Origin: Alphaproteobacteria bacterium | Lineage (GTDB): Bacteria > Pseudomonadota > Alphaproteobacteria > UBA6615 | Assembly: GCA_021774575.1 (NCBI GenBank) | Contig: JAJFIX010000017.1 | Span: 3,924 to 67,923 of the forward strand | Length of the DNA stretch: 64,000 bases | Direction: 5' to 3' | Shown here: one piece after another, positions 18,093 through 58,125 of the stretch | Position numbering within the stretch: position 1 is the stretch's first letter | Layout: every line of letters starts with the position of its first letter | Notes under the pieces: generated by a model | Seen by the model: only the letters and a program-made list of their open reading frames with translations | Told to the model about the DNA's origin: nothing | The model's database searches: none | Program-made: the position numbers and the translations under genes

Positions 18093-18278
18093 ATGCTCAC
18101 CAAACGCAAAATTGCCTCGTTCATGCTGTATACTGCAATTTAGCCCTTATAAGTCGGCGCGGCGCCCGCCGCAATGAAGGCGTGGTTTTAGGCGAGGCCA
18201 GTTGCTATGGTGGTTGGTGTGAACAAGGGCGATCCCAGCGCCAAATGAATTCAAGAGGGACTATATCCAAGAGGGACC

Positions 18279-18554: not shown

Positions 18555-18790
18555 CGCCGATTCTCAATACGAGTCGTTTGTATTAATTTCCGGCTTTCAC
18601 CTTAAATCGCGGAATTCATGGCCTTGCCGCCTGTGGGTTTCCCGCAAGTTATGCACCTTGCACCCCAAATGTAAATCTGACACCGTACCAGCACTTGTGG
18701 TCGGGAACCTTCCCGATACAATATTTGGTGCGAATTGTCGGAAGAGGCCTCTGCCCGTTTTCCGGCGAAAACCCGGGAGAGACGTTAAGA

Positions 18791-33275: not shown

Positions 33276-34703
33276 ATGAGTAAGGAAAGCGTACGGCCGG
33301 TCACCATTTTAATTGCCGCCCTTGGTGGCGAGGGTGGTGGGGTGCTGATGAATTGGATTGTTGAGGCCGCGCACTTGGCCCGATTTCCCGTGCAGGCAAC
33401 ATCGGTTCCCGGCGTCGCGCAGCGGACCGGCGCCACCACATATTATATTGAACTGATGCCCGGTAAAGCCGATGGCAATATACCCGTCATGTCTTTGTCA
33501 CCCGTGCAGGGTGAAATAGATGTGATGGTTTCGACCGAATTAGCCGAGGCCTCGCGGGCCCTGGCTGGCGGATTTATTTCTTCCGACCGCACCGCCCTGA
33601 TTGCGTCGACCCACCGCCATTATATGAATTTGGAAAAAATGGCGATGGGAGAAGGGCGGTTGAGCGGTGACGAGGTACGGGCGGCCCTGGAAAAATCTGC
33701 CCGTAGCAGCGTGTTGTTTGACGCAGCGGAATTGGCGCTGGAAAACGGCGTTCATGTTAACGCCATCATGTTGGGCACAATCGCGCGAACCGGATTGTTG
33801 GGTATTGATCGCGAGCATTTCATTGGCGCCATTGGCCGGTCGGGCAAATCGGTAGACGCCAATTTAAAGGGTTTCGAACTTGGCTTGACCATTTCCGATG
33901 AGAGCGAACTGGACTTAGTGGACAAAAAATCTGTTTTTCTCTCCGGCCCAGACGCGGTTGAAGATGCAGTCCGGCGTCTCGAAAAATACCAGAATGCCAA
34001 ATATGCGCAGAAATACCGTGATCGATTGGCGCCGTTTCAGGCTGGCGACCCGGTTGTCGCCGAAGCGGTGGCGCGGCATTTAGCTATACGGATGACCTAT
34101 GACGATATCATTCGGGTCGCCCAGGCTAAGATCGGTGCAGGCCGCTTGGATCGCATCCGCGGCGAAGCCGGAGCGCAACCGGGGGAACCGCTCTACGTTA
34201 CGGATTTTTTTAAGCCGGGCGTTCAGGAAGTTGCCGATCTTTTGCCGCCGCGCTTGGCACGAGCATGCCTGAACTGGGCGGCGAAAAAGGATCGGATGCA
34301 TCGAGTGTCCTGGCCGCTGTATATCCGAACCACGACTGTGTTTGGATTTCTAAAAATCTGGGCTCTGGCGAAATTGCGCTGGTGGCGCCCGCGCTCATTT
34401 CGCTGGACCTTTGAGCAAGAGGAGATCGACTTGTGGCTCGCTGCGATCCGGCAGATGGGAACTCTTGACGTTGGCGCGGCAAGGGAAATTGCAGAGCTTT
34501 CAGGTCTGATCAAGGGGTACGGAGCGACACATGCTCGGGGGATGCATAGCTATAACAAAATTCTAACTGCCCTAATTGACCCAGTCTTAACGGGCGAGGC
34601 GCCTCCGCGACCTCGGCTTGCCGCGCAAATTCTTGAGGCGCGCCTCGCAGCGCTGGCCGATCCCGACGGTGCGGCTTTGGACGCGTGCCTGGAGGCCGAC
34701 TAG
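33276..34703 (+). CDS. iorB: indolepyruvate oxidoreductase beta subunit
   Basis: Start moved to the ATG at 33276 (MSKESVRPVTILIAALGGEGGGVLMNW, the POR-gamma-type GGEGGG motif), 9 nt after the iorA stop. Confidence 0.75.
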   Translation: MSKESVRPVTILIAALGGEGGGVLMNWIVEAAHLARFPVQATSVPGVAQRTGATTYYIELMPGKADGNIPVMSLSPVQGEIDVMVSTELAEASRALAGGFISSDRTALIASTHRHYMNLEKMAMGEGRLSGDEVRAALEKSARSSVLFDAAELALENGVHVNAIMLGTIARTGLLGIDREHFIGAIGRSGKSVDANLKGFELGLTISDESELDLVDKKSVFLSGPDAVEDAVRRLEKYQNAKYAQKYRDRLAPFQAGDPVVAEAVARHLAIRMTYDDIIRVAQAKIGAGRLDRIRGEAGAQPGEPLYVTDFFKPGVQEVADLLPPRLARACLNWAAKKDRMHRVSWPLYIRTTTVFGFLKIWALAKLRWWRPRSFRWTFEQEEIDLWLAAIRQMGTLDVGAAREIAELSGLIKGYGATHARGMHSYNKILTALIDPVLTGEAPPRPRLAAQILEARLAALADPDGAALDACLEAD

Positions 34704-36016
34704 ATAGGCAGGGAGATTTCTGCGCGCAATCCGCCCATTGGGCTCTCGGAAAGAGTGATCTTGCCGCCATGCTCGTGGACGATATCTTGGGCAATCGATA
34801 GTCCCAAGCCGGTGCCGCCGGTGTCGATGTTCCGCGACGTATCAATCCGAAAAAATGGGCGAAATACCTCGTCGCGATGGGCCTCGGGGATGCCCGGCCC
34901 ATCGTCATCCACGATGATGGCTATATGGTCACCCATACTGTTTGTCGATATTTGAACTTTTTCAGCGCCATAGCGCAGTCCATTGGTGGCCAGATTGGTC
35001 AGGCACCGCTTGAATGCTTCTTTGCGTAGGCTGATTTCAGTTATGTCGAGATGGCCACACTCAATTTCTTTCTCATTGATGCGCGCATTTTTCGCCACAT
35101 CCCTGATCAATGCGTCGATCCGGACGGTTTGTGTTTTTTCTTCGCCTTCGCCGCGAACAAAATCGAGATAACCGGCGATCATATTTTCCATTTCGGTGAC
35201 ATCGTGCGCCATTTCGGCGGCGTCATCGTCGTTGGTCAGCATGGCAAGCTGTAGCTTCATGCGGGTCAATGGCGTACGTAAATCATGGCTGACCCCCGCA
35301 AGCATAAACGTGCGTTGCTGGACCTGGCGATTGATGCGTTCGCGCATGGCCAAAAAGGCGGCGGCGGCCTGGCGTACTTCGGCGGCGCCCGACGGTTCAA
35401 GGTCTGTCTCTATATGGCCCTTGCCGAAACTCTCGGCTGCCCGGGCAAGACGGCGTATAGGGCGAACCTGGTTGCGCATGAAAAGGGTGGCGACACCAAA
35501 CAGGATGATCGATGTCCCAATCATCCAGGCGACGAAAATACGGGTGGTCGAACTGATTAGCCGTTCGCTATCTGTCGCCACCCGTAGAATTTCGTCACCG
35601 GTATCAATCCAAATGATGACGCGTTTGGACTGAGCGTCCGTGTCAATGATGTAGGCGTTTCGAAATGGGCCATCCAGGGCGACGGCGAGTGTTTTTTGCA
35701 AGTTTCCGCTGGGCTCGAATGTTCCGTCGATGACCGGTCCTTCAGTCGTGACCTCGAATTCGAGCCGGATGGTGGACGCCGCCAAATATGCGAGTTCGGT
35801 CTCCGAAAACCTGGGATCCGCCTGGCTGCGTAATAGTTTGACTAGGGTGATTTCACCAACCAGATCAAGTGCACGGTGACGACTGACCGTTGACCAATGT
35901 CGGTCATAAAAAATTATGCCGGTGACAATTTGGAGGAGTACCAGCGGGATCATGATGATCAACAAAGACCGGCCGAGCAGGCCGCGGGGCAGGAATTTTT
36001 TGATACCCAGCTTCAA
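34700..36016 (-). CDS. EnvZ-like sensor histidine kinase
   Basis: 438 aa. Two TM segments plus HAMP, H-box GVSHDLRTPLTR and ATPase boxes VDDDGPGIPE and GGTGLGLSIAQ. Confidence 0.85.
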   Translation of the reverse strand: MKLGIKKFLPRGLLGRSLLIIMIPLVLLQIVTGIIFYDRHWSTVSRHRALDLVGEITLVKLLRSQADPRFSETELAYLAASTIRLEFEVTTEGPVIDGTFEPSGNLQKTLAVALDGPFRNAYIIDTDAQSKRVIIWIDTGDEILRVATDSERLISSTTRIFVAWMIGTSIILFGVATLFMRNQVRPIRRLARAAESFGKGHIETDLEPSGAAEVRQAAAAFLAMRERINRQVQQRTFMLAGVSHDLRTPLTRMKLQLAMLTNDDDAAEMAHDVTEMENMIAGYLDFVRGEGEEKTQTVRIDALIRDVAKNARINEKEIECGHLDITEISLRKEAFKRCLTNLATNGLRYGAEKVQISTNSMGDHIAIIVDDDGPGIPEAHRDEVFRPFFRIDTSRNIDTGGTGLGLSIAQDIVHEHGGKITLSESPMGGLRAEISLPI

Positions 36017-36043
36017 TTCTCTATTCCCTGACTATCGGTAAAA

Positions 36044-36727
36044 CTAATCTGGTTGGAGGACATATCCTTGCCCCCGCACAGTTTGCAGATAGCGAGGCAC
36101 TTTGGGAGTCGGTTCTATTTTACGTCGGAGCCGGGTGACTTGCACATCGATTGCCCTACCTCCGCCGGTCAAGCCGCTGAGACGTTGCAAGTCGTCGCGG
36201 CTAATTGGCGTGCCTGGACGGCCGGCAAGCACCCGCAAAAGCAGTACCTCCGACGTCGTCAGGCGAATTGGCCCATCCTCTCCTGTCAGTGTCTCGCGGT
36301 CCAGGTCAAATCGGTATCGCCCAAGTTTAATTTCACCGGTTGCCGCTTTACGTGTCGTGACCCGGCGTAGGATACCGCGCACCCGCGCGACCAGTTCCGC
36401 CGGCTCAAACGGCTTGGTTAAATAGTCGTCGGCACCGCGCTCCAGCCCGTCAATACGGTTTTGGGTCTCGGCCATTGCCGTCAACAATAAAATCGGAACG
36501 TCACCGCGTCGCCGCAATTCGTCAGTGAGGTCCAGGCCGGATTCGCCGGGCATCATGACGTCAAGAATGAGTAGGTCGAATACCAGGCTCTGCAATTTCG
36601 ACCTGGCGTCGGCAACGTCTGAGGCGACGGTGATCCGGAAACCCTGGTCACCTAGATAGCGGTGCAATAATTCGCGAAGACGTCGGTCGTCATCGACGAC
36701 GAGAATGTGGGGTGCTTCTTCGATCAT
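36044..36727 (-). CDS. OmpR-family response regulator (PetR/CenR-like)
   Basis: Receiver ILVVDDD...LLILDVMMPG...TKPF plus winged-helix LTTSEVLLLRVL...YLQTVRGQGYVL. Start moved to Met20 (36727). Confidence 0.85.
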   Translation of the reverse strand: MIEEAPHILVVDDDRRLRELLHRYLGDQGFRITVASDVADARSKLQSLVFDLLILDVMMPGESGLDLTDELRRRGDVPILLLTAMAETQNRIDGLERGADDYLTKPFEPAELVARVRGILRRVTTRKAATGEIKLGRYRFDLDRETLTGEDGPIRLTTSEVLLLRVLAGRPGTPISRDDLQRLSGLTGGGRAIDVQVTRLRRKIEPTPKVPRYLQTVRGQGYVLQPD

Positions 36728-36764
36728 GTACGCTACCTTTCCAGCTTTCGGATGCAAACAGCGA

Positions 36765-37322
36765 TCAATCGCCCTGCCGGTCATGGTTTTCGGGTTTTTG
36801 GCTCGTGGTATCTGGGCTCGCGCGTTGGGAGTTGCCGCGCTGCGGCGTCGTCACCCGGCGCCGATCTTCTTCATTGACGATGCCCAGCATAACTTCGCGA
36901 AACCCTTGCACCGCTTCTGCGCCCGCGTCGCGATAGGCATGAGCAATCCTTCTGAGTTGGGTCTCGGAAAGCTCATTTTCTAGGCGTTTGCCCTTTTCGG
37001 TCAGGGTAAGCTGGCGCCGCCTGCCGTCATTTGGATCCGGCTTTTGGTCGACAAAACTCTGTTCAACCAGGGCGCCGAGAACCCGCGACAGGCTTTGTTT
37101 TGTGATTTTGAGAATATCCAGCAACTCACCAACCGATAATCCCGGGTGGCGACCGACAAAATAAATGACCCGGTGATGGGCCCGACCAAACCCCGACCGC
37201 GCCAAGATTTCGTCCGGCTCGCCGGTAAAATCGCGATAGGCATAGAATAGCAGTTCTATGCCCTGACGGAGATCGTCCTGGCGCAGGAAGAGGGGATTGA
37301 TACCTGATTTAAGGTCAACCAT
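36765..37322 (-). CDS. MarR-family transcriptional regulator (PetP-like)
   Basis: 185 aa. Winged HTH LSVGELLDILKITKQSLSRVLGALVEQSFVDQKPDPNDGRRRQLTLTEKG. Lies directly upstream of the response regulator gene. Confidence 0.8.
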   Translation of the reverse strand: MVDLKSGINPLFLRQDDLRQGIELLFYAYRDFTGEPDEILARSGFGRAHHRVIYFVGRHPGLSVGELLDILKITKQSLSRVLGALVEQSFVDQKPDPNDGRRRQLTLTEKGKRLENELSETQLRRIAHAYRDAGAEAVQGFREVMLGIVNEEDRRRVTTPQRGNSQRASPDTTSQKPENHDRQGD

Positions 37323-44565: not shown

Positions 44566-45040
44566 GCCTTCTATTTCATATCGGCGTGTCGCCACTGCTT
44601 CAAGTTTCTCTATGGTTCTGGGTTCATCGGCGATCAAAATCGTTCTCAGTCGGTCACTTCGCGGATGCCCGCTCGTTGTCCACGGCTTTGGTGGACAAGT
44701 ATGTGTGTAACACATTGGCAGATTGTACCTAGCCTAAGGATTCCGCGCCTTCCTATGATTTGCCTAAATTTTGAGCAAAAAAGGTAAGCCGTTGAAATAT
44801 AATGTATAATACTCATGGGCCTTAGGGTGGCACGAAGAGATGCTGTGTGACCCAGGTGCCGCAATGTGACAAAGTCGCACTGTGTCCTGCTGTGCATAAT
44901 GTCGGACGAACGGTCAATAGTTTATGCATATAGCGTTCGGATATAATGATATTTTGCCATCCTCACGCCGAAAACTTGCGGTTGATAATTTGACGAACTG
45001 TTGCCAAATATCGCGTTCAGTTGCCGCATGTGCGTGGTCT

Positions 45041-46880: not shown

Positions 46881-47111
46881 ACGCTGAAACCCTTTCCGAC
46901 TTAGCTAAGTGGGGGACGGGCCCCCGAGCACCCTGCTTACCGGGCCAATTCAAGATGCTGGTCCAAGATCATTGTCTTCGGTTTGACAGAGACCGAGAGC
47001 CGCAAAAGATATTGAAGGGTATATGGGGTCGATCGCTGCGGCGTCCACCCGAATGTGCGATATATCGGCATCGGTTTAGACGCCCGTCGGCATTGGGTGC
47101 CGAAGACGCGT

Positions 47112-49244
47112 CTACCGCGAGGTGATTTGCTGCGCTGCCGGTTGAAAAATGAGGCCTTCCAGTGAAATCGTGGCGCCTTCCATTTCGGGACGCTGACGTA
47201 CACAATAGGCGGTCGGGTAGAGCCCAGCCTTGGCAAATGACGCGGGTTGACTGATCGGGAAGCAAGCATTAGCCGTCGTGGTCAAGGCTGCAAGAGTTAC
47301 CTTGGGCTCGAAGAAAGTAAGGGCACCGTCGTAACTGCCGAAAGTGAATCCATTGGCGAAATTGGCCGGGTTAGTTGCGGCAAATTCTGGCGCATGAGAA
47401 TCGAGTAAATGGTTCCCCATATAGCTGATCGCGCCGCCGACATTTACGTAGCCGGCGGGTATGAACTGTGCGGGCACCGGCATTGTCGCCCGGGCCAGAA
47501 GAGTGCAGTCGATCATGTCGCCGCAGGGCCCATGGGCAATCGCCTGCACTGCCTCGAAATCCTGCAAGAAAAAATGGACGCTGAGATGCGGTTGCGCAAG
47601 AGCGGCCGGCCAATTGGCCGTTGCCGTCGGCGTAATGCGTCTGTGACCCTGGGGTAACCAATTCAGACTCACCCAAGATATCGGCGTTGCCGCACTTTGA
47701 TTTGAGCCAGCGTTTGCCGGTGTGGGCATGCGCAGAAAATGCTCCGTCACGGTCATGCATTCGGCGTTTCGGTCGGGGTAGCCGTTGCCGTTGAGATCGA
47801 TGCAGCGGCGTTGGTCGCTTGTTTGCTGAGTGAGCGCGGTAAGAGCTTCGGTTTCGATGAGAATACCGACCGAAACCGGTATGCCATCAGCTCTCATTTC
47901 AACATATGTAGAGACTTGGCCGGTTCCGATAGTCTTCAGCGGTCCCGTCCGTTTTAGTGCATTTGGTGCCGCGTCGGCGCGCAAATGGGCCAATAACGGA
48001 CCCGAAATGCCACCATCAGCCGCAAGTCCGCGGCGCCCTTGATATTCGCTAATCGCCCTGGCCGTGCCCGCATTCATGATGCCGTCAACGGGGCCGGCGT
48101 TAAATCCCAGCGTTGCCAGTGCCTGCTGTATCTCGCCGACAACAGCGGGGCTTGTCAGCCGAGACACGTTGCCCGGACCTGTGTTGACTTGGCTGCGCGG
48201 CGGCGCAGCAAATGTCGGCTGCAACAGATTTGTTTGGGGGTCGGTCTGGTATGAAATCGGCTGTGCCCCGATCGGCTGAGCCGGAACTGGGTTATAGAGC
48301 GCTGGACCTGAGCCTCGGGTTGGGGCGACGGATCCGCCGCCGCCATACTGGCCGGCATCTTGGCGCAATCGGTTCAGCAGACTAGGTGTGATAGTGCCGT
48401 CCGATTGCAGCCCGATAATAGAAGCATAGGTGCGGACGGCTTGAGCCGTCTCAGGCTTCATGATGCCGTCAACCGGACCTGGTTGCATTCCCAAACGAAC
48501 GAGCATCTCCTGCGCCTCGGCGATTTCGCGACTAGGGCCGGGGACATTTCCTGGCAGCAATTGGGTTGGCATTTGCGGCTGCTGTTGCTGAAATTGCGGC
48601 ACGATCGCCGCCTGCCTGCGGGGCTGGGCGGGTTGTATTTGCCCTTGCGCGCGCTGTTGTGCACCCTGCTGCGCGGCCGCATATCCATTTTGTGCGCGAT
48701 ACCTGACTCGCGGACGGGGGTCGTAGCCCGGATCGGTATTTGCCGGATAGGATGTTGCCCCTAATCTGCCAGCTTGCGGGTTGTAAAGATCGTTTGATCC
48801 CAATTGACCCGCTGCATTTGCCGGCAGCATGCCTGTATTCAGGCCGGGGGCAGGGATGTTTGTTCCGGCAAAAGCCGTTGGGGGCTGTGGAAACGCCGAG
48901 GGGATCGCGCTCAATTGTGGACTAACGGCCTGACGGGGGTCCTGATTGGCGGTCTGGCCGGTGATCGGCTGTTGGAGTGCCTGCTGCTGACCAAACGCCG
49001 ACAATGCCGATGGAGGCTGTGGGAAGGCCGACGGGTTTGCGCTTATTTGTGGGTTAAAGGTCTGGCGATTGATCGGCTGCTGAAAAACCTGCTGTTGCTG
49101 GCCGATTGTAGCCGGTGTAATCAATCGTTGACTGCCTCGCGGCAGAAAATCCATTACCCCCGCCCCACTACTACAGGCCGTCAAAGTAGCCGTTAGTGCC
49201 GCTGTCACGGCCAATGTCGAGAATGCAGAATAATTTGTGCGCAC
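47112..49244 (-). CDS. lipoprotein with Q/P-rich disordered region, two PG_binding_1-like domains and a C-terminal Cys-containing domain of unknown function
   Basis: GTG start. Lipobox LTAC. About 250 residues rich in Q/P/A with repeated SAxPSAFPQPP units. Two peptidoglycan-binding repeats (AQEMLVRLGMQPGPVDGIM...; IQQALATLGFNAGPVDGIM...). A ~270-aa C-terminal globular part follows. Confidence 0.6.
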   Translation of the reverse strand: MRTNYSAFSTLAVTAALTATLTACSSGAGVMDFLPRGSQRLITPATIGQQQQVFQQPINRQTFNPQISANPSAFPQPPSALSAFGQQQALQQPITGQTANQDPRQAVSPQLSAIPSAFPQPPTAFAGTNIPAPGLNTGMLPANAAGQLGSNDLYNPQAGRLGATSYPANTDPGYDPRPRVRYRAQNGYAAAQQGAQQRAQGQIQPAQPRRQAAIVPQFQQQQPQMPTQLLPGNVPGPSREIAEAQEMLVRLGMQPGPVDGIMKPETAQAVRTYASIIGLQSDGTITPSLLNRLRQDAGQYGGGGSVAPTRGSGPALYNPVPAQPIGAQPISYQTDPQTNLLQPTFAAPPRSQVNTGPGNVSRLTSPAVVGEIQQALATLGFNAGPVDGIMNAGTARAISEYQGRRGLAADGGISGPLLAHLRADAAPNALKRTGPLKTIGTGQVSTYVEMRADGIPVSVGILIETEALTALTQQTSDQRRCIDLNGNGYPDRNAECMTVTEHFLRMPTPANAGSNQSAATPISWVSLNWLPQGHRRITPTATANWPAALAQPHLSVHFFLQDFEAVQAIAHGPCGDMIDCTLLARATMPVPAQFIPAGYVNVGGAISYMGNHLLDSHAPEFAATNPANFANGFTFGSYDGALTFFEPKVTLAALTTTANACFPISQPASFAKAGLYPTAYCVRQRPEMEGATISLEGLIFQPAAQQITSR

Positions 49245-49357
49245 AATACCCCCCCAAATTCAAACGGCAAATGAATGAAATCTGGGCTGTACAGCCACTT
49301 TTTAGGAAGGGATCAGCATGCCAGTGCTAACCCTAATCATCCAGTTCCGCCAGGTTC

Positions 49358-49366
49358 TGTGGATAA
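49358..49366 (+). promoter_or_regulatory. perfect DnaA box (TGTGGATAA = complement of TTATCCACA)
   Basis: Exact 9-mer read in the sequence. Intergenic, ~115 nt upstream of the 47112-49244 gene. Confidence 0.6.
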
Positions 49367-49378
49367 GTATAGCCTAAT

Positions 49379-49387
49379 TGTGGATAA
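49379..49387 (+). promoter_or_regulatory. perfect DnaA box (TGTGGATAA)
   Basis: Exact 9-mer in the same orientation, 21 bp (two helical turns) from the box at 49358. Confidence 0.6.
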
Positions 49388-49564
49388 AATGTCCCGAAAA
49401 AATTGGCGGCGGCAAAACCATGCGTGATCGCAAGGGTTTTGGGGGCTTGGGCCGTGCCGAAATGTTGGGGAAGGTAGTCGTTATAGCCGTCGCGCGGCAG
49501 ATCTCAGCAGAGTTGCAGGGCAGCGTGTGGGGGCCAAGAATTATTACGAAAAGTTAGCGTCCGT

Positions 49565-52303
49565 CTAGAGCCTGTTGAGGTGCCCTCTGTTCGTAACTTG
49601 GAGGTCGTCGCGCATACTGGTCAACAAAGAACGGGTCAGGCGACCGTCGGGATAGAGGCCTTTATGACGCTGATAATCGGCGATAGCACTTATCGTTGCC
49701 GGTCCGGCGATACCGTCATTTGCGCCGGGGTGGAGCCCTAGCTGCGCCAGCATGTTTTGCGCGTCGGCGACGCTGCTCGACTGGCGTGAACTTCCAGATT
49801 GCAGGCTAAGGCGATCAAACCGGGTTGAAGGCCGGGTTGACGGCCGGAACGAGGACCTACCGAATATGTCGATATCGTCGCTGAAATTATCGCCGAAACC
49901 GCTATCGTAAAATGGATCGAATGAGCTGTTGTTGCGACCGATGTCAAGTTGCCCAAATCCACCGAGGCCGCGCGATGTCAGACCGGTCTGAAGAAAAGTC
50001 GGCCCGCCGTGGTCAGACATGCCCCCAAATACCCGATGGCGAACAAAGTTTCCGGTCAATGGCCCGTTCAACGCGACCGGCGTGAAGTCAACGGAAGGAG
50101 ATAGGTGGCGCTGGACGTCTCGGCGCAACGTTTGAATCAAGCGGTTGGTCAATCTGCCGTCGACACGCAATCCTCTGGCATCTTGATAATTCATTATGCC
50201 GTCACGGGTGTACATACCAAATCTGCCATCAATCGGGCCCGGGTCAAAACCGAGAGAGGCCAAACTCTGCTGCACTTCGGCGACAAGGCTCGGTGTCGAA
50301 TTGGTAATACCGGTTCTGATTGACGGACCGCTTAGCAGGCCGCCTCCGATACCATCAAATCTACTGCCAAACCTACTGCCAAACCTGCTGCCAAAGCCGA
50401 GCCCGTTGTCTCGCAGGCTGACATTAAACACACTGTTGCGGGCGTCGACTAATACAGGGCCCGAACCCCTGCTCGACAAACCTCTATTCGAGATGTTTAA
50501 GCCGCGTGTTCCGCCGAAGTCGTGTCGAGAACTGTTGCCAAAAGAGCTTGTGTGAGGCCGCTGAAACACTGGCCTCTGGCGGAAATTTTGCCGAGTAAAC
50601 GGAGCCTGATTGCCAAACCTGCTGCCAGACCCGTCGTCAAAAAATGACCTGGGCTGGGGTTGGTGTTGGCTTTGTCGGCCATAGGGCTGCATTCCGTAGC
50701 CAGAGGAGCGGCTAAAATATCCCGATTCCATCTGGCGGCCACCTTGGCGTTGGTACGGGGTGGTGAAGTTACTGCTGTTGCCGAAACTCTGCCGCAGCGG
50801 ATAGCTGTTTTGCTGACCATGGTTTGGCATGTTGCCGAAGGAACTATTGCCGTAGCTGGGCCGAGACATGTGACTGCCTTGCTGGCTATATGGCGCACTA
50901 TTATGGCCAAGATTGCTGCCAAAGCTAGGCTGCGACAGGTGACTATTTTGCTGGTTGTGGGGCGCGCTGTTTTGGCCAAAATTGTTGCCGAAGCTAGGCT
51001 GCGACAGGTGACCGCTTGGCCGGTTGTAGGGCGCGTTGTTTTGGCTAAAATTGTTGCCGAAGCTGGGCTGCGACAGGTGACCGCCTTGCTGGTTATAAGG
51101 CGCGTTATTGTGGCCAAAATTGCTACCGAAGCTAGGCTGAGTCAGGTGATTGCCTTGTTGATTATAGGGCGCATTGTGGCCAGAATTACTGGGGTAATTC
51201 GGTTGTGTTCGGTGCGAATGCCGCCCATCCAAGGGAGAGTTTCCGTACCGCACATTTGTGCCGAACTGAGAGTTAGTGGACGGCGCTCCATTGAAACCAG
51301 CCGTATTGGCATAAACAGTCTGGGGCTGGTGAAAGTTTTGCTGCCCAAAGGGTGAACCGCCAAAACTCGAATTATTGTTGAAACCTGACTGAGAAAAGGG
51401 CGCGCTGCCAAAATTGGCATTGCCGTTAAATCCGCTATAGGCCCCGTTGGCACCCAGAAGACCAGTGTTTGAATTGTTATGGCCGAACGACTGATTGCCG
51501 AAGTTATTGTGTCCATTGGGGTCAAAATTATTGAACCCGGGCTGCCCAAATTGAGAAATTCCGCCACTTAACCCATTGCTGGTAAAACCGGAATTGTTAT
51601 TAAATCCAGTGTTTTGATTAAAGTTAGCGGTATTGCCGAAACCGGGGTTAGAAAATCCGGTAGAACTTCCAAATCCATTGTTGTTGAAGCCGGCATTGTT
51701 GTTGAAGCCGGCATTGTTTAGCCCGGTGTTACCGAAGCCAGTGTTGTTGAATCCGGTATTATTATTAAAGCCTGCCGTATTGTTGAAACCACCGTTGTTG
51801 AAACCGGAATTACTATTGTTGAGCCCGGTATTGCCATTAAAGCCGGCAGTATTGTTGAAGCCACCGTTGTTGAACCCGGAATTACCAAAACCAGTATTGT
51901 TATTAAATCCCGCAGTATTGCCGAAGCCACCGTTGTTAAATCCGGGGGTTCCGAAGGTATTTTGTTGAGGGAACTGGTTCGAACTAAATTGATTGTTCCG
52001 AATGGTCTGCGACCCGACGGCAGTGACGATACAATTCGGAGGTCCAAAATTATTTGTCTGACTGTTGCGTGCCTGCGCGGCAGTACAGAAGGTCTGCGAT
52101 TGCTCACCGCTGTTAAAATTGTTGAACGCGTTGGGATTGCCGGTTGCCCCAAATAAGTTCGAAATATCGTTACTTGGAGCTGAAAATTGGGCCAATGCCG
52201 ACGCAGACATCCCTAGCATAAAAGTTAGAGAAATCCCGACCGCAAGAATGCCAGTTTGGCCAGTTGTTTTCGAGAACCCGTCCGTATTTGGTAACAAAGT
52301 CAT
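49565..52303 (-). CDS. secreted N/G/F/S/Q-rich low-complexity protein (GFNN/FG repeats, 23-aa QPSFG repeats) with two peptidoglycan-binding domains
   Basis: Start placed at Met14 of the ORF-track product (ATG at 52303, behind gggggagggg). Signal peptide ...MSASALA-QF. See findings for composition. PG_binding_1-like segments VQQSLASLGFDPGPIDGRFG... and AQNMLAQLGLHPGANDGIAG... Confidence 0.7.
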   Translation of the reverse strand: MTLLPNTDGFSKTTGQTGILAVGISLTFMLGMSASALAQFSAPSNDISNLFGATGNPNAFNNFNSGEQSQTFCTAAQARNSQTNNFGPPNCIVTAVGSQTIRNNQFSSNQFPQQNTFGTPGFNNGGFGNTAGFNNNTGFGNSGFNNGGFNNTAGFNGNTGLNNSNSGFNNGGFNNTAGFNNNTGFNNTGFGNTGLNNAGFNNNAGFNNNGFGSSTGFSNPGFGNTANFNQNTGFNNNSGFTSNGLSGGISQFGQPGFNNFDPNGHNNFGNQSFGHNNSNTGLLGANGAYSGFNGNANFGSAPFSQSGFNNNSSFGGSPFGQQNFHQPQTVYANTAGFNGAPSTNSQFGTNVRYGNSPLDGRHSHRTQPNYPSNSGHNAPYNQQGNHLTQPSFGSNFGHNNAPYNQQGGHLSQPSFGNNFSQNNAPYNRPSGHLSQPSFGNNFGQNSAPHNQQNSHLSQPSFGSNLGHNSAPYSQQGSHMSRPSYGNSSFGNMPNHGQQNSYPLRQSFGNSSNFTTPYQRQGGRQMESGYFSRSSGYGMQPYGRQSQHQPQPRSFFDDGSGSRFGNQAPFTRQNFRQRPVFQRPHTSSFGNSSRHDFGGTRGLNISNRGLSSRGSGPVLVDARNSVFNVSLRDNGLGFGSRFGSRFGSRFDGIGGGLLSGPSIRTGITNSTPSLVAEVQQSLASLGFDPGPIDGRFGMYTRDGIMNYQDARGLRVDGRLTNRLIQTLRRDVQRHLSPSVDFTPVALNGPLTGNFVRHRVFGGMSDHGGPTFLQTGLTSRGLGGFGQLDIGRNNSSFDPFYDSGFGDNFSDDIDIFGRSSFRPSTRPSTRFDRLSLQSGSSRQSSSVADAQNMLAQLGLHPGANDGIAGPATISAIADYQRHKGLYPDGRLTRSLLTSMRDDLQVTNRGHLNRL
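50780..51195. repeat. six tandem 69-bp coding repeats (23-aa unit ~HLSQPSFGNNFGQNSAPYNQQGG)
   Basis: The core agctaggctgcgacaggtgac recurs with period 69 at 50854, 50923, 50992, 51061 and 51130, with a degenerate copy near 50785. Confidence 0.85.
51335..51958. repeat. degenerate short coding repeats specifying the GFNN/GFGN field
   Basis: Iterated ...aaaccggtattgttgttgaagcc...-type 12-30-bp units. They encode 13 exact GFNN tetrapeptides plus ~10 GFGN/GFNG/GLNN variants (residues ~129-336, ORF-track numbering). Confidence 0.75.
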
Positions 52304-52568
52304 AAGTTGTACCCCTCCCCCTGGGTATTCGAAAAAATCCAAACGCCCGTCGCTCGCCGGTTTTCCTGACTAACAAATGCCCCCGAAATTACTAGCAAAT
52401 GCTTTATCTATAGGCACTTAGTCTCACTTGATGATCAGGTATGCCAAGGTCGTTGAAAAACAAACGGTTTTGGAACGTTGATTCCGTCACACTGTAGTTG
52501 GTTTCCGTAGTCGACCGGATGATAGGGGATCGATGTTATTCACGCATCGCAAAAGCTGCCGGTATATT

Positions 52569-52577
52569 TGTGGATAA
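52569..52577 (+). promoter_or_regulatory. perfect DnaA box (TGTGGATAA)
   Basis: Exact 9-mer within the 720-bp non-coding region 52343-53063. Confidence 0.6.
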
Positions 52578-52691
52578 CTTCATGGTTTGGCAAAATGCTG
52601 GCTGAAATTAGTGGGGTTATACAATGGCGATATGCTAAAAAAATCTTTAATTTTAATGGCTTATAGAAGGTCGCAGGGAAGTATCCAGAAG

Positions 52692-52700
52692 TTATCCACA
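52692..52700 (+). promoter_or_regulatory. perfect DnaA box (TTATCCACA)
   Basis: Exact 9-mer in the opposite orientation to the 52569 box. A 2-mismatch copy, GTATCCAGA, lies immediately upstream (52681-52689). Confidence 0.6.
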
Positions 52701-52912
52701 GTTTGTATAAAATCGTGAGACAGGGGATGGACAGGTCATATGTGCGTGTGAATGTTGCATTAACGCCACATATTTACCAGTTTTGTACACGGGCTTCAGG
52801 TGCGCGTACCACCGGTGCAGGTCACAGTCCTCCGGTTGTGCTATCGACCAGCTGAAAAATTGGATCCGGGAGTGCTTTTGCGATGGCGTGATGTTTATCA
52901 CACAGAAATGCG

Positions 52913-52971
52913 CCCACCTGCCAGCCCACCTGCCAATTGAGCAGAAATCGAAATTCTACCAAGGGCAGGTG
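52913..52971. repeat. tandem CCCACCTGCCA x2 plus an inverted copy
   Basis: CCCACCTGCCA occurs at 52913-52923 and 52925-52935. GGCAGGTG (about 52964-52971) is the reverse complement of CACCTGCC. Confidence 0.7.
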
Positions 52972-53063
52972 AGCTGTAGGCCGGCGAATGCGGCGCTAGA
53001 CCGTAGATTGAAACTTCTTAGTAGCGTCTCTACGGTTGCTATATTGGTTCGGCATAACTGGAC

Positions 53064-53600
53064 CTAAAAACGATTTCCATTCATGACGCGATAGCCGCCT
53101 TGGGTGAAAACGACACCGGGGGTGCCGTATATATTGGCTTGATAGGTTGGGCCTGTCTGAACGAATCTCGGTTGGCCGCACTGCTGGTTGCCGCCAGCAA
53201 AACTGGCGCCGCCGTAACTGTTTTGTTGCCCATGGTTGCCGCCATTCGTCAGGAACTGAGGGCAGCCCTGAGCAAAGGACGACTGGGAGTGTGGGTTTAC
53301 AAATTGTTGCGGTTGATGTTGATTTTGAAGATAGGTTGTCTGCCCTGTGCCTGAACCGTGTCCGGCCATTGATCCGTGACCCGCTGGCGATCCGTGACCC
53401 GCTAGACTTTGATTATGGCTTGTTTGACTTATTTGGCTTGGATGATTGGCAAAAGAGCCGTGTCCCGGTGAGCGACTTGTTTGGACATATTGGGTTCTCG
53501 GGTCCGACTGCTCAAGCGTTCTGTATGAAGGCTGGCATGCCGTCAGGAATACAGACGTACCGAGAAGAGCCAAACCAATCGCAAGGGGGGATTTGCGCAT
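53064..53600 (-). CDS. small lipoprotein, Q/G/H/S-rich low complexity
   Basis: Start placed at Met21 (ATG at 53600, behind aagaggaaaa). Lipobox LTAC. AGHGS x3 and Q/N/G-rich remainder. No recognisable domain. Confidence 0.55.
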   Translation of the reverse strand: MRKSPLAIGLALLGTSVFLTACQPSYRTLEQSDPRTQYVQTSRSPGHGSFANHPSQISQTSHNQSLAGHGSPAGHGSMAGHGSGTGQTTYLQNQHQPQQFVNPHSQSSFAQGCPQFLTNGGNHGQQNSYGGASFAGGNQQCGQPRFVQTGPTYQANIYGTPGVVFTQGGYRVMNGNRF

Positions 53601-53732
53601 GATTTTTCCTCTTAATGTTGGCCGTGGCACGACCAGGCAAGTCACAAACTTACGCACCACTAGCGGATCATTCGTCGATAGGGTTCCCCATCGATTCGTC
53701 TCAAGCTACATTCGATCAAGGTGGGCATTGCT

Positions 53733-53741
53733 TGTGGATAT
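53733..53741 (+). promoter_or_regulatory. DnaA-box-like 9-mer, one mismatch (TGTGGATAT)
   Basis: 8/9 match to the consensus, in the divergent spacer between the small lipoprotein gene and msrA. A weaker copy, cgcGGATAA, is at 53764-53772. Confidence 0.4.
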
Positions 53742-53762
53742 CCCGAGTCGGATCCCGAGTCG
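53740..53762. repeat. 12-bp tandem repeat ATCCCGAGTCG(G) x2 carrying two GANTC sites
   Basis: ATCCCGAGTCG occurs at 53740-53750 and 53752-53762. GAGTC occurs at 53745-53749 and 53757-53761. Confidence 0.8.
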
Positions 53763-53791
53763 TTCGCGGATAATTAAAAAAGATTGGAGAA

Positions 53792-54256
53792 ATGATGCCG
53801 GAAGCAATTTTTGCCGCAGGATGTTTTTGGGGCGTTGAAGACATGTTTCGCCAACATCCGGGGGTCACAAATGTTGAAGTTGGCTATACCGGCGGGTCGG
53901 GTGAAAACCCTACCTATGAAGAAGTGTGTGGCGGCACCACCGGCCATGCCGAGGCCGTTCGAATTGAGTTCGATGAAACTCGGACGACCTATTCCGCCCT
54001 GTTGGAGACTTTTTTTCGCATTCACGACCCGCGTCAGGTTAATCGCCAAGGGCCAGATATCGGCACCCAGTATCGTTCGGCGATCTTTACCTGCAGTGAC
54101 GATCAGCGTCAGGCTGCTCATTCGGCGAAAGATGCTGTAAATGAAATGTTGGAGAGCAGCGAAACGGTGGCGACCGAAATCCTACCCGCATCGAGCTTTT
54201 GGCGCGGCGAGGAATATCACCAACAATATTTCGCCAAGCATCGCCGTGGTCATTGA
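53792..54256 (+). CDS. msrA: peptide-methionine (S)-S-oxide reductase
   Basis: 154 aa. Active-site GCFWGVE, then GYTGG..ENPTYEEVC.G.TGHAEAV and DPRQVNRQGPD.G.QYRS blocks. The second ATG (53795) fits the ggag RBS better. Confidence 0.9.
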   Translation: MMPEAIFAAGCFWGVEDMFRQHPGVTNVEVGYTGGSGENPTYEEVCGGTTGHAEAVRIEFDETRTTYSALLETFFRIHDPRQVNRQGPDIGTQYRSAIFTCSDDQRQAAHSAKDAVNEMLESSETVATEILPASSFWRGEEYHQQYFAKHRRGH

Positions 54257-54282
54257 GCGATGGCGTTATGGGAGCCAAGGTA

Positions 54283-54852
54283 TCATGGCACCCAAAATAT
54301 TTGCGCCAGGCTCCATTCGTCTAGGATCGCCCTGGGCGGCACTTCGCTGTCGGGGCCAGACCATTCGCCTTCGAAAACCAGATGAACATGTGTGTAGGGC
54401 GGGGCTGAACATATTGTAAAGGCGCTGAGTTCCTCCAATCCACGATCGCAAATGGGGGGCGTTATGTCCGGCACAATATCGGGGAGCATCAGCGATGAAA
54501 ATTGGTTCCCGATGGCGCCGCCATTGTTGAGTGCAATAAAGGGGCTCAGTATTTCAATGCGCAATATGGTCATGAGCGCGGGGCCAGGAATGATCGTGAA
54601 AAGCTCCTGGTCGCCCTCGATTATCCGAATGACCGGGTAAGGCTCACCTTCCGACATCGACTGACCGGGCTCGACGAGCAAATTGGGAAACAGGTCGGCA
54701 ATCACCGTAATATTGAACGGGGTGTCTTCGTTTACCGGGCCAATGCCCGCATCGCTCAGGGCTAGCGGGTCTTGTGTTGGTGTTGGCGCACAGGCGCCGG
54801 TGAAGACGGGCAAAATCAAAGCGAGGACGGACAATATCAAAAATCTTGGCAT
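54283..54852 (-). CDS. putative lipoprotein, unknown function
   Basis: Start placed at Met30 (MPRFLILSVLALILPVFTGAC, lipobox FTGAC). This removes the overlap with the divergent methyltransferase gene. Confidence 0.5.
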   Translation of the reverse strand: MPRFLILSVLALILPVFTGACAPTPTQDPLALSDAGIGPVNEDTPFNITVIADLFPNLLVEPGQSMSEGEPYPVIRIIEGDQELFTIIPGPALMTILRIEILSPFIALNNGGAIGNQFSSLMLPDIVPDITPPICDRGLEELSAFTICSAPPYTHVHLVFEGEWSGPDSEVPPRAILDEWSLAQIFWVP

Positions 54853-54928
54853 ACCGCAGTTCATACTGCGCATTCTTTCGTGTAGAAGGGCGGCACGCGG
54901 CACCTGAATTCTAACCGACGGAAGTGTG

Positions 54929-55696
54929 ATGGCCAGCAATTGGGAACCCCCCTATACCTTTGAAGAGAAGCTCAAATATGCGCTGATCCCGCCGCGTCTG
55001 TATATCAGGCAATTGGCGGCACGGGCCTGGAAAAAGGGTGAGTTGGAACTCCACCTGCTGCCATTCCTTGCGGCGGCCGACAAAATGGCCGTCGATGTAG
55101 GCGCCAACAAAGGTATTTACACCCATTTTCTGGCTAAGCTTGTAACTCGGGTTGAGGCTTTTGAGCCCAACCCGAAAATTTTTCGCATCCTTAAAAGAGC
55201 ATTGCCGGAAAATGTCACCGCCCATCCGGTTGCCCTTTCCAATACAGCCGGAACTGCCCGGTTGATGGTGCCGAAGCGCAAAGTCGGCTACACCAACCAA
55301 GGCGCGTCATTGAGCGAAACCAAGATCGCTCGGGTTCACCAGGGTGCAGACTACGGTGTCGTCGAAGTTGAGGCGCGCACTATAGATAGCTACGACTTTC
55401 GCGACCTTGGGTTCATTAAGATCGATGTCGAAGGGTTCGAGCGACCGGTACTCGACGGTGCGGCCGAAACAATCGAGCGGGAACGGCCGGTGATGCTGAT
55501 CGAAATTGAAGAGGTTCATACGGGCGAGCCAATTGAAGAGCAGCTTTCTTATGTTGAAAGTCTCGGTTATGACGGGTTTTTTCTGGATGCGGGCCGGCTC
55601 ACGTGTTTGAGCGCTTTCGACCCGGAGCGAAATCACCGGGCTCCGCCGAGTCGACCTAAATACGCTTTTAATTTCATTTTTTTGCCGCGCGGTTAA
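54929..55696 (+). CDS. FkbM-family methyltransferase
   Basis: VDVGANKGIYT SAM-binding block, ...FIKIDVEGFE... and a family-typical length. ATG at 54929; the ORF track uses the GTG at 54926. Confidence 0.7.
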   Translation: MASNWEPPYTFEEKLKYALIPPRLYIRQLAARAWKKGELELHLLPFLAAADKMAVDVGANKGIYTHFLAKLVTRVEAFEPNPKIFRILKRALPENVTAHPVALSNTAGTARLMVPKRKVGYTNQGASLSETKIARVHQGADYGVVEVEARTIDSYDFRDLGFIKIDVEGFERPVLDGAAETIERERPVMLIEIEEVHTGEPIEEQLSYVESLGYDGFFLDAGRLTCLSAFDPERNHRAPPSRPKYAFNFIFLPRG

Positions 55697-55714
55697 ATTT
55701 AAAAGGAACAAGGT

Positions 55715-56449
55715 ATGACTGAGAGCAATGCCAAGCCGCCTTATAACGCGCCACGCTTCAAGGTGCGCCAGTATGATTTCGATGTATTCGCCGGTCCACG
55801 GGCTGGCGAAGCGGTGGATGACTATGAATTCACCGATCTTCTTGGCGATCACGTGAAATTATCTGACTTCAAAGGCAAATGGGTAGTCGTCGAGACGGGC
55901 TCGGCAACCTGTTCCATGTACACAAAAAATATTGGTGAAATGAAGCATCTCGTCGTTGATTTTCCCGACGTAAAATTTTTGGTTGTATATGTCCGCGAGG
56001 CACATCCGGGTGAGCGTTTTGGCCACCATAAAAATATTGCCGACAAAATTAAGGGCGCGGTCATGTTGGCGCCGCGATATGGCGAAACCCGGCGGATCCT
56101 CATCGACAGTATCGACGGGGCTTATCACAAGGCGCATGCGACCATGCCAAATACCTGCTACGTGATCCGGCCCGATGGAAAGGTGCATTATCGCTGCAAT
56201 TGGCTAATGCTTGATGGCCTTCGCGACGCTTTGGAGGATCGGGAAAATCTGCATCCAAACGAACATGCAGACCTTGCCAAACTGCGTGGCGACAGGGGTT
56301 ATTCAAATATGATCCGCACAATGTGGACCGGCGGCCTTCTCGCGCTGTGGGATTTCATTATCAACATGCCTGCCGTACTCAAGCGCCATGAAGCGATCGA
56401 TACCTATTACACCGAGCATGGTGAGTTTAAGAAAACGCCGGAGAATTAA
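55715..56449 (+). CDS. thioredoxin-fold protein, possibly iodothyronine-deiodinase-like (Cys form)
   Basis: 244 aa. KGKWVVVETGSATCSMYT matches the G-S-x-T-[C/U]-x-x-[F/Y] active-site pattern of deiodinase-like redoxins. Followed by ..VVYVREAHPGE. Confidence 0.4.
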   Translation: MTESNAKPPYNAPRFKVRQYDFDVFAGPRAGEAVDDYEFTDLLGDHVKLSDFKGKWVVVETGSATCSMYTKNIGEMKHLVVDFPDVKFLVVYVREAHPGERFGHHKNIADKIKGAVMLAPRYGETRRILIDSIDGAYHKAHATMPNTCYVIRPDGKVHYRCNWLMLDGLRDALEDRENLHPNEHADLAKLRGDRGYSNMIRTMWTGGLLALWDFIINMPAVLKRHEAIDTYYTEHGEFKKTPEN

Positions 56450-56473
56450 CGAACGTTTCCGCTCTTTTTGGAC

Positions 56474-57094
56474 TTAATCGTCGTCGTCCACCATTTCTCT
56501 TGGCAAATGGTGCGCGATGCCGCGATGGCATTCGATGCAGGTCTTACCGTCTTCAATGGCCTCGGGATGTCTTCGCGATGCTCGTCTGATCTGTGCGTCA
56601 AAATCCATGGCCTCGAAGCTATGGCAATTTCGGCATTCCCGCGAGTCGGTCGCTTCCATTTCCGCCCAAACACGCTCTGCCAGGTGAAGACGCCGTTCCT
56701 CGAAATCCTCTGCTGTCGCCAGGGTTCCCATCAAATGGTAATAAAGCTCTGATGTGGCCCGTATTTTGCGCAGCATCTTGGGGCCCCATTCCCTTGGCAC
56801 GTGGCAATCCGTGCATATTGCCCGCACACCCGAGCTGTTTGCGTAATGGACGGTCTCTTGATATTCAGGAAAAACCGTGTCTCTCATTTCATGGCAGGAA
56901 ACACAGAAGCCCATTGTATTGGTTGCCTCCACCGCAGTGTGGAAACCGCCCCAAAATATGATCCCGCCAAACCCACCGACAATCAACAAAACACCAAGGG
57001 GGATGGCTTTAGCCGGATGCCAGAACCAATGCCAAAGACGCCGGATCCATGACCCACGTCGAGCAGGAGATGTGTCGGGCATGTGCCCCTCCAT
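56474..57094 (-). CDS. NapC/NirT-family membrane-anchored tetraheme cytochrome c (quinol dehydrogenase type)
   Basis: N-terminal TM helix plus four CxxCH motifs (CVSCH, CTDCH, CRNCH, CIECH) with family-typical spacing in ~200 aa. Confidence 0.85.
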   Translation of the reverse strand: MEGHMPDTSPARRGSWIRRLWHWFWHPAKAIPLGVLLIVGGFGGIIFWGGFHTAVEATNTMGFCVSCHEMRDTVFPEYQETVHYANSSGVRAICTDCHVPREWGPKMLRKIRATSELYYHLMGTLATAEDFEERRLHLAERVWAEMEATDSRECRNCHSFEAMDFDAQIRRASRRHPEAIEDGKTCIECHRGIAHHLPREMVDDDD

Positions 57095-57182
57095 GACGAA
57101 TTAATTGAGCAAAGCGCAGACGCACGGCATACCGACCGCAGGCCCAATCGGCCTACGGTCGGTAGCCAAGTCTAAGAGCGGC

Positions 57183-57920
57183 TTATTCAGGCAAGGTCTG
57201 GGTATAGGCCAAGATATCGACGGAGAGTTGCCGGTCAAAAGCGCGGAAAGCAGGCATGTCTTCATCGGGTTGCCCGTTGAGGATTTTATGCAGCACTTCC
57301 CACGGATTGCCACGCGCGACCGGTCCAAGAGCCGGGCTATCTTTTATGCCTTTGCCATCAAAGCCATGGCAATTTGCGCAAACCGTGTTGAAAAGGGGTT
57401 CGCCCGCATCGACGGACCCGCGCGCTTCCTTGCTGGAACGATCAATTGCATCATCCATATCAAATAGCCCTTCACTAAGGAACAGGGCCAAATCAGACAT
57501 GTCGTCATCGTCGAGCATATCGCTGGAAAAGCCGTGGGTGTCATCGCCTAAAATATCCGCTACGTCACCGGCGTCTCCGCCACCAAAGCCGCTGACCCCA
57601 ATAAAGCCAGTGAAATGGCTGCCGCTACCATAGGCACCATCGGCACCGCGATAATCCCAGCCATGACATTCTTTACAGCGCCAGGTTCCGGCGCCGCTGC
57701 GGTCAATATCTGCTGGGTAGGTTGGGTGGGTTTCATCGGGGCCATCGACCCCGACAACGGCGTACCATTTATCGTAAAGTTGGCCGCCGCGAACGATCGA
57801 CGATTCGATTTCGTCGCCTATCGCCGTTTGAACAACACCGAGTTGGCCACTGAGAAGGAGGCCGCCTGTAATTCCGACAGCGAGTAGGCTCGCAATTGAA
57901 AGTCTGCGTGTAAAAATCAT
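57183..57920 (-). CDS. periplasmic diheme cytochrome c
   Basis: Signal peptide or anchor, two CxxCH motifs (CKECH, CANCH) and an acidic linker. Lies 88 nt upstream of the NapC-like gene on the same strand. Confidence 0.7.
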   Translation of the reverse strand: MIFTRRLSIASLLAVGITGGLLLSGQLGVVQTAIGDEIESSIVRGGQLYDKWYAVVGVDGPDETHPTYPADIDRSGAGTWRCKECHGWDYRGADGAYGSGSHFTGFIGVSGFGGGDAGDVADILGDDTHGFSSDMLDDDDMSDLALFLSEGLFDMDDAIDRSSKEARGSVDAGEPLFNTVCANCHGFDGKGIKDSPALGPVARGNPWEVLHKILNGQPDEDMPAFRAFDRQLSVDILAYTQTLPE

Positions 57921-57989
57921 AAGCTCTCTCCTTCATTCGAGACGAATTGTTCAGCCTGCCCTCTGTCTTTCGCCCCTTCGTGTTTCGGC

Positions 57990-58021
57990 GTTAGATCCCA
58001 TCTGCGAACATGGATTCTAAC
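57990..58021. promoter_or_regulatory. imperfect inverted repeat upstream of the cytochrome gene pair
   Basis: GTTAGATCCCAT (57990-58001), an 8-nt spacer, then ATGGATTCTAAC (58010-58021). 10 of 12 positions are complementary. Lies 70-100 nt upstream of the ATG at 57920. Confidence 0.3.
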
Positions 58022-58125
58022 GTCGTTCAAATTGCCTTTCTAACTTGCCAAAACTCTAGCATATATGACCAAACGTGGACAGGGTGAAAATTGCCCCGCG
58101 TTTGGTGTAAATGAGGGGCGTAATT

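Follow-up and report, generated by a model that had tools for sequence, protein, structure and literature searches.

The window analysed here comprises about 64 kb out of a 75.5-kb contig, sequenced at 3–9x depth, from an uncultured alphaproteobacterium in a biofilm metagenome. It contains a cluster of 9-mers that match the consensus binding site of DnaA (DnaA boxes), distributed over the spacers upstream of each of three adjacent minus-strand genes. These genes encode envelope proteins: a lipoprotein of 710 amino acids (aa), a secreted protein of 925 aa and a small lipoprotein. Judging from the sequence, we consider it probable that the 9-mers are genuine high-affinity DnaA boxes situated in promoters or leaders of the three co-oriented genes, with DnaA serving as a transcription factor. 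The level of active DnaA, and hence the replication cycle, would then govern the expression of a lineage-specific envelope module. An earlier note on this DNA had offered DnaA-dependent, cell-cycle-coupled transcription of the envelope genes as one of three possibilities, next to a chromosomal origin and a datA- or DARS-like locus; conserved promoter-proximal islands and GcrA-type sites in the third spacer now favour it.

An exact search of the whole window for TTATCCACA returned four perfect copies, at 49358 (−), 49379 (−), 52569 (−) and 52692 (+), and agrees with the earlier note on their positions, on the first two being direct repeats 21 bp apart and on all four (4/4) being non-coding. The note had also judged four copies unlikely by chance; in 100 dinucleotide-preserving shuffles of the window the mean count was 0.31, and none of the shuffles reached four. 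One-mismatch copies of TTATCCACA occur at chance level across the window (12 against 9.25 expected), and the excess of boxes is therefore specific to this locus. Seven such copies lie elsewhere in the window (9721, 20245, 23249, 31565, 38044, 44891 and 56358), where only two, at 9720 and 20246, had been noticed before. Relaxing the definition to TTATNCACA with at most one mismatch gave 29 sites, 7 of them inside the three spacers (spacer 1, 49245–49564; spacer 2, 52343–53063; spacer 3, 53601–53791; 1,232 bp in total), where 0.56 would be expected; all five perfect matches to TTATNCACA in the window are non-coding. The spacers also hold near-copies of TTATCCACA at 53733 (ATATCCACA, one mismatch) and at 52536 (TTATTCACG), 52681 (GTATCCAGA) and 53765 (TTATCCGCG), with two mismatches each. 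All four had been reported, the last of them one base off, at 53764, while a further box, TTATACAAA at 52702 (−), 1 bp from the box at 52692, had been overlooked.

The spacer sequences are the same in contigs of three independent sequencing runs of the biofilm metagenome, which excludes an assembly artefact. When the sites were compared with one another, including those of a related lineage, the bases flanking the 9-mers were not shared between them, and the conserved unit is therefore the DnaA box itself. The sites, lettered a–h below, are arranged singly, as direct pairs and as inverted pairs. Longer duplicated modules linking the boxes were not found, the only repeat being a 13-nt inverted repeat, GAAGTTATCCACA, that joins boxes c and d; an origin of the boxes by repetition or duplication was rejected on this ground.

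Homologues of the three proteins were found in one related lineage only, with 57–61% identity. The window's own lineage has turned up solely in Logan assemblies from two studies: a search of GTDB representative genomes did not find it, returning just an irrelevant Alicyclobacillus peptidoglycan-binding match, and JGI metagenomes gave no match. Contigs of the relative cover all three spacers, which are 49–57% identical overall and cannot be aligned in their distal parts. Against this divergent background, the boxes sit in short conserved islands. Boxes b, d, e and f are conserved at nine of nine positions, boxes a and g at eight and box c at seven. Boxes a, b, d and f are oriented so that TTATCCACA runs along the coding strand of the gene that follows, 114–266 bp from its start codon. 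What is observed directly is where the sites lie, that they exceed chance expectation and that they are conserved.

The clearest arrangement is found in spacer 1, upstream of the 710-aa lipoprotein gene (47112–49244, −). Perfect boxes a (distal; 49379–49387, −) and b (proximal; 49358–49366, −) lie 135 and 114 bp upstream of its GTG start codon. Both fall within a 57-bp conserved island (49348–49404, −), 53 of whose 57 positions are identical in the relative. It is the largest conserved island in the spacer, the distal remainder of which does not align, and it also contains a T-tract and the −35 and −10 elements of a candidate sigma-70-like promoter (49366–49395, −; GGGACA, 18 nt, TATACT; 9 of 12 matches). 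In the relative, the −35 element is identical and the −10 element reads TACACT, the T-tract that precedes the promoter match is conserved, and box a reads CTATCCACA with its 21-bp spacing to box b kept. Box a lies within the candidate promoter's spacer, at about −28 to −20 relative to the candidate transcription start, whereas box b, at about −7 to +2, adjoins the candidate −10 element and extends over the predicted +1 position. At a distance of 21 bp the two boxes face the same side of the helix, one lying between the candidate −35 and −10 elements and the other over the −10/+1 junction. Because the boxes overlap the candidate core promoter, a geometry of occlusion, this arrangement suggests that DnaA acts as a repressor in spacer 1. 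Bound DnaA would block RNA polymerase, so that the 710-aa gene would be repressed at high DnaA and released after initiation.

Further conserved elements lie downstream of the boxes. The leader of the 710-aa gene contains a conserved palindrome, GTGGCTGTACAGCCCA (GGCTGTACAGCC), at 49283–49298, which is possibly an operator or an RNA hairpin. An island with the core TGGCAT(n1-2)CTGATC recurs in spacers 1 and 2 (49311–49329, GCACTGGCATGCTGATC; 52432–52455, CCTTGGCATACCTGATCA). Both copies are kept in the relative and resemble neither a sigma-54 nor a clear sigma-70 element; a sigma-54 promoter was rejected by eye, as no TTGC element stands at the right spacing.

Spacer 2 precedes the 925-aa gene (49565–52342, −), whose open reading frame (ORF) most likely starts at ATG 52303, after a conserved ribosome-binding site, GGGGGAGGGG. 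Perfect box d (52569–52577, −) lies 266 bp upstream of this ATG, and the DnaA-like box e, TTATTCACG (52536–52544, +; one mismatch to TTATNCACA), falls in a 25-bp conserved island (52533–52557). Perfect box c (52692–52700, +) reads CCATCCACA in the relative. It converges across a 1-bp gap with box g, the newly found TTATACAAA (52702–52710, −; one mismatch to TTATNCACA), which belongs to the island TTTATACAAnCTGTGGAT. The weak box h, GTATCCAGA (52681–52689, +; two mismatches), is 2 bp from box c on its other side and has no conserved counterpart in the relative. The interval from box d to box c holds the conserved core, AAATTAAAnATTTT (52640–52653), of an AT-rich stretch, and the 40-mer at 52630, with 80% AT, is one of two that tie for the AT-richest in the window. 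Four to five boxes are thus grouped in 175 bp around this core. The relative carries an extra near-box, TTATCCAGA, at a place in its spacer 2 where the window has none; together with the loss of box h, this gain looks like the turnover of sites that is expected in a regulatory cluster.

Spacer 2 has repeats of its own. A perfect 12-nt inverted repeat, GCTTTTGCGATG, has its arms at 52545–52556 and 52874–52885, with 317 nt between them; the first arm belongs to the conserved island adjoining box e. A tandem duplicate of GCCCACCTGCCA occupies 52912–52935. The distal copies of the GCTTTTGCGATG and GCCCACCTGCCA repeats are not conserved in the relative. A plus-strand promoter-like match over boxes e and d (52539–52568) was dismissed, since its −10 element is not conserved in the relative.

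The third spacer separates the small Q/G/H-rich lipoprotein gene (53064–53660, −) from the divergent msrA (53792–54256). The lipoprotein ORF of 198 aa most likely has its true start at ATG 53600, giving a protein of 178 aa with the lipobox LTAC. The near-perfect box f, ATATCCACA (53733–53741, −), lies 133 bp upstream of this ATG and 51 bp from that of msrA, and is fully conserved in three contigs of the relative. The two-mismatch copy TTATCCGCG (53765–53773, −) is not conserved in the relative and is on that account probably non-functional. Two GANTC sites, both CGAGTCG and 12 bp apart (53745–53761), adjoin box f, and a third, CGATTCG (53693–53697), belongs to a conserved island of 34 bp. Each of the three has the form YGAKTCK, the methylation-site consensus preferred by GcrA (PMC4647560), and each is conserved in the relative. 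With 20 such sites in the whole window, about 0.06 would be expected in the 191 bp of this spacer.

GANTC as such is about fourfold depleted in the window, with 66 sites where about 267 would be expected, and it is over-represented in the non-coding DNA, which makes up 14.6% of the window and holds 17 of the 66 sites. Depletion combined with non-coding enrichment is a signature of the methyltransferase CcrM (PMC3973325), and by this signature the host would be a CcrM-bearing alphaproteobacterium. A DnaA box next to GcrA/CcrM sites is a cell-cycle promoter architecture known from Caulobacter (PMC8203912). Spacer 3, with its DnaA box and three methylatable sites of the GcrA type, looks like an alphaproteobacterial cell-cycle promoter, such methylatable sites being the signature of S-phase promoters in this class; the divergent msrA may be affected as well. 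Promoters under GcrA and CcrM control have their sites around −20 or between +2 and +30 relative to the transcription start. Taking the three spacers together, we regard the locus as probably a small DnaA-controlled envelope module, with joint control by DnaA and GcrA predicted at one promoter. Elsewhere in the window, a second GcrA-type pair, CGATTCT and CGAGTCG at 18559–18575, also 12 bp apart, lies in the non-coding stretch 18093–18694 and possibly marks another promoter controlled by GcrA and CcrM.

Several points weigh against DnaA control of these promoters. The box count covers about 64 kb of the 75.5-kb contig, and conservation amounts to one pairwise comparison with a single relative lineage. 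DnaA occupancy, the promoter positions and the sign of regulation are what we infer from sequence. The sigma-70-like match in spacer 1 is weak; the region holds about as many such matches as chance predicts (5 against 4.3 expected), so that the candidate promoter draws its support only from conservation. The proximal part of spacer 3 is highly conserved overall, which makes the conservation of box f less discriminating, and box f could serve msrA instead of the lipoprotein gene.

The three genes share features of envelope proteins. The 710-aa lipoprotein carries the lipobox LTAC, a Q/P-rich low-complexity region and two PG_binding_1 domains. Public gene calls give a shorter product of 670 aa, but we favour the GTG at 49244 as the start because the lipoprotein signal is conserved. 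Its C-terminal globular domain (about 270–300 aa, containing Cys; 47112–48032) is strongly conserved in the relative and has no significant sequence match in Pfam or the PDB, only a sub-threshold TTHB210-like one. In the 925-aa protein, N/G/F-rich and Q/S/H-rich repeats lie between a signal peptide and two peptidoglycan-binding (PG_binding_1) domains. They are encoded by in-frame tandem repeats with units of 69 bp (4.7 copies, 50847–51172), 72 bp (51744–51945), 18 bp and 12 bp, which yield low-complexity sequence of the types GFNN and NAPYNQQGxHLSQPSFG. The assemblies of the relative break inside the repeats of this gene.

The entire box-bearing cluster is part of a segment of about 11 kb between a Na/Ca-exchanger gene and uvrB (46881–58125). 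In a related metagenome-assembled genome (MAG; L012, GCA_021774445.1), which keeps the gene order uvrB, Na/Ca exchanger (Na_Ca_ex), SDR, uvrC ... moeA, the uvrB and exchanger genes are 64 bp apart and the segment is absent. Two other relatives that carry UvrB (L010/L011 and L013) lack synteny with the window on this flank of the gene and are uninformative here. Besides the three envelope genes and msrA, the segment encodes DUF1131, an FkbM-type methyltransferase, a T4-deiodinase/AhpC-like protein, a NapC/NirT cytochrome and a cytochrome c. Neither an integrase nor a transposase turned up in it, and its GC content (0.48–0.55) is somewhat below that of the flanks. The window's UvrB is at most 85% identical to others, its named matches being 'Alphaproteobacteria bacterium', Rhodospirillaceae and Kiloniellales. 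A structured RNA in the long spacers was rejected, since no Rfam family reaches its gathering threshold anywhere in the window. Outside the segment, the AT-rich spacer upstream of uvrC (44716–45040) contains TTATGCACA at 44891, a perfect match to TTATNCACA, and TTATGCATA at 44922; DnaA may bind there, more weakly, next to a gene for DNA repair. In E. coli, uvrB is reported to be under DnaA control (PMC2533591).

A cluster of perfect DnaA boxes invites the question whether the region is the chromosomal replication origin or part of one. The perfect boxes of spacer 2 flank one of the two AT-richest 40-mers of the window, and a long run of minus-strand genes extends to the left, which the earlier note had taken as supporting context. 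Spacer 2 has no repeated 13-mers, and the remaining boxes are split over two other spacers, one of them 2.8 kb away across the 925-aa gene. The earlier note had suggested looking for a skew minimum at about 52.7 kb. None was found: the GC skew stays positive along the window (in nearly every 2-kb sub-window), and its cumulative curve climbs evenly apart from short dips. Because codon usage itself skews third codon positions, we decomposed the GC skew at these positions (GC3 skew) from a per-gene table, separating the codon-usage effect from a replication component. The latter is about +0.08 to the left and about +0.07 to the right of 52.7 kb, with no switch of sign. By this measure the leading strand is the plus strand along the whole window, so that replication meets the run of minus-strand genes head-on; the run does not lead away from an origin, contrary to what the gene orientation had seemed to indicate. 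Pfam scans of the window's larger ORFs found no dnaA/dnaN, hemE, parAB or gidAB, the window has no parS within three mismatches, and it holds no perfect CtrA site (TTAA-N7-TTAA), with one-mismatch sites below chance (6 against 12.8 expected). The whole segment is, moreover, missing between conserved flanks in the related MAG. In Caulobacter, the origin lies beside hemE and combines weak and moderate boxes with CtrA, IHF and GANTC sites (PMC6393856); in this best-studied alphaproteobacterial case perfect boxes are therefore no hallmark of an origin. As far as sequence can refute it, the origin proposed in the earlier note is largely refuted, and we hold it to be extremely improbable.

The cluster might also be mainly a locus of DnaA control, acting as a titration sink or in the manner of datA (hydrolysis of DnaA-ATP) or DARS (nucleotide exchange, with release of ADP from ADP-DnaA), with effects on neighbouring genes secondary. 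Dense high-affinity boxes within 4.4 kb, and above all their grouping around the conserved AT-rich core of spacer 2, speak for it, as does the precedent of B. subtilis clusters that both regulate their neighbours and restrain initiation (PMC2533591, PMC3245932). The known elements fit poorly, however. The datA locus has about five DnaA boxes with an essential IHF site between two of them (PMC4585315), whereas a scan of the spacers for WATCAANNNNTTR with at most one mismatch found no IHF consensus between or near the boxes, only trivial overlaps with the boxes themselves. A DARS core has boxes I and II opposed across 5 bp and box III co-directional with II, at strictly conserved spacing (PMC6868365). 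The trio of h and c (forward) and g (reverse) at 52681–52710 is superficially similar, with one opposed and two co-directional boxes (PMC6868365), but its gaps are 2 and 1 bp in place of the required 5 bp, and the relative, in which box h is absent and box c degenerate, does not preserve the trio. The earlier proposal of a datA- or DARS-like locus thus finds neither the IHF site nor the spacing and conservation it calls for. The boxes are, furthermore, spread over three promoters and do not form one element, and the segment that carries them is lineage-specific and absent from a related genome. We know of no datA or DARS equivalent in Alphaproteobacteria, which likewise counts against a control locus of this kind. 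Such a function is compatible with the promoter reading, and plain titration of DnaA by these sites is possible alongside a regulatory role; as the main purpose of the cluster we consider it unlikely. A less probable alternative is that another regulator, for instance a winged-helix response regulator, binds the sites and that their identity with DnaA boxes is coincidental. Direct repeats at 21 bp, two helical turns apart as in spacer 1, are what OmpR/PhoB-type regulators typically bind, the window has genes for an OmpR-family two-component pair at 34700–36784, and the other conserved islands of the spacers show that further factors act there. Yet four of the sites match the universal DnaA consensus at nine of nine positions and several more at eight, with no flanking bases in common; their occurrence as single sites, direct pairs and inverted pairs fits a monomer binder like DnaA and not a fixed dimer site; and the cell's DnaA would bind perfect boxes in any case. 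That the boxes are functionless, present by chance or inheritance, could be argued from the availability of a single relative and from the conservation of spacer 3 as a whole. The failure of every shuffle to reach four copies, and the non-coding position of all boxes in conserved islands against a divergent background, make this very improbable.

DnaA control of the envelope-gene promoters has precedents in several bacteria. DnaA is an established transcription factor in Alphaproteobacteria, and its targets in Caulobacter crescentus include gcrA, ftsZ and podJ (Hottes et al., 2005, via PMC8203912). There, as here, boxes occur at promoters of genes without a role in replication, and they co-occur with CcrM/GcrA methylation sites, as in spacer 3. 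The present locus differs in that its boxes are perfect consensus copies, occur in pairs and serve three adjacent promoters of lineage-specific low-complexity genes, which, unlike the Caulobacter targets, have no homologues in model organisms. Also, the Caulobacter examples are activated, whereas the geometry of spacer 1 suggests repression. Among the Caulobacter targets, podJ encodes an envelope protein with a peptidoglycan-binding domain.

In Bacillus subtilis, clusters outside oriC are found at sda, ywlC, yydA, ywcI-vpr, gcp-ydiF and thdF-jag (PMC2533591, PMC3245932). Like the boxes described here, they consist of intergenic consensus and near-consensus boxes that are conserved among relatives; they regulate adjacent genes and jointly buffer DnaA. 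They belong to another phylum and to other target genes, and they are denser, with 4–8 boxes per ~50–100 bp, against 2 in 30 bp, 4–5 in 175 bp and a single box in spacers 1, 2 and 3. By the Bacillus-type definition of a cluster, at least four relaxed boxes in ~50–100 bp of intergenic DNA that bind DnaA stably in vivo (PMC2533591), the corresponding figures are 4 in 175 bp for spacer 2, 2 in 30 bp for spacer 1 and one for spacer 3. The dnaA, mioC and nrdAB promoters of Escherichia coli offer a parallel to the geometry predicted for spacer 1: high-affinity boxes overlap or abut core elements, and repression by occlusion depends on the level or nucleotide state of DnaA. The genes in question here are, however, unrelated to replication or nucleotide supply, and the promoter is a predicted one. 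With datA and DARS1/2 of E. coli the locus shares the character of a chromosomal DnaA-box cluster away from the origin and, with DARS, an opposed pair plus a third co-directional box; it differs from them in having no IHF site, gaps of 1 and 2 bp, an unconserved arrangement and boxes in gene promoters.

A more speculative proposal, to which we give a low probability, is that the ~11-kb segment brought or evolved its own boxes and combines a sink or modulator of DnaA with GcrA/CcrM-timed, peptidoglycan-anchored, disordered (N/G/F- and Q-rich) periplasmic proteins. If true, it would be the first replication-control locus in an alphaproteobacterium that resembles datA or a DnaA-box cluster (DBC), and the timed proteins might serve, for example, a polar or division-associated envelope structure.

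Good evidence that DnaA has a second role as a transcription factor comes from only a handful of model bacteria, and the alphaproteobacterial DnaA regulon is poorly defined outside Caulobacter and Sinorhizobium. The present locus is an unusually clean candidate, with perfect boxes, conservation at the level of single sites and a single module whose three promoters are neighbours, one of them with CcrM/GcrA sites. It is also a warning against taking a cluster of perfect DnaA boxes as the mark of an origin in the class Alphaproteobacteria. If DnaA does control these genes, the three spacers would provide a compact set of promoters for studying how the number, spacing and orientation of boxes set the direction of DnaA control, and the replication status of an uncultured biofilm bacterium would be wired to the composition of its cell envelope.

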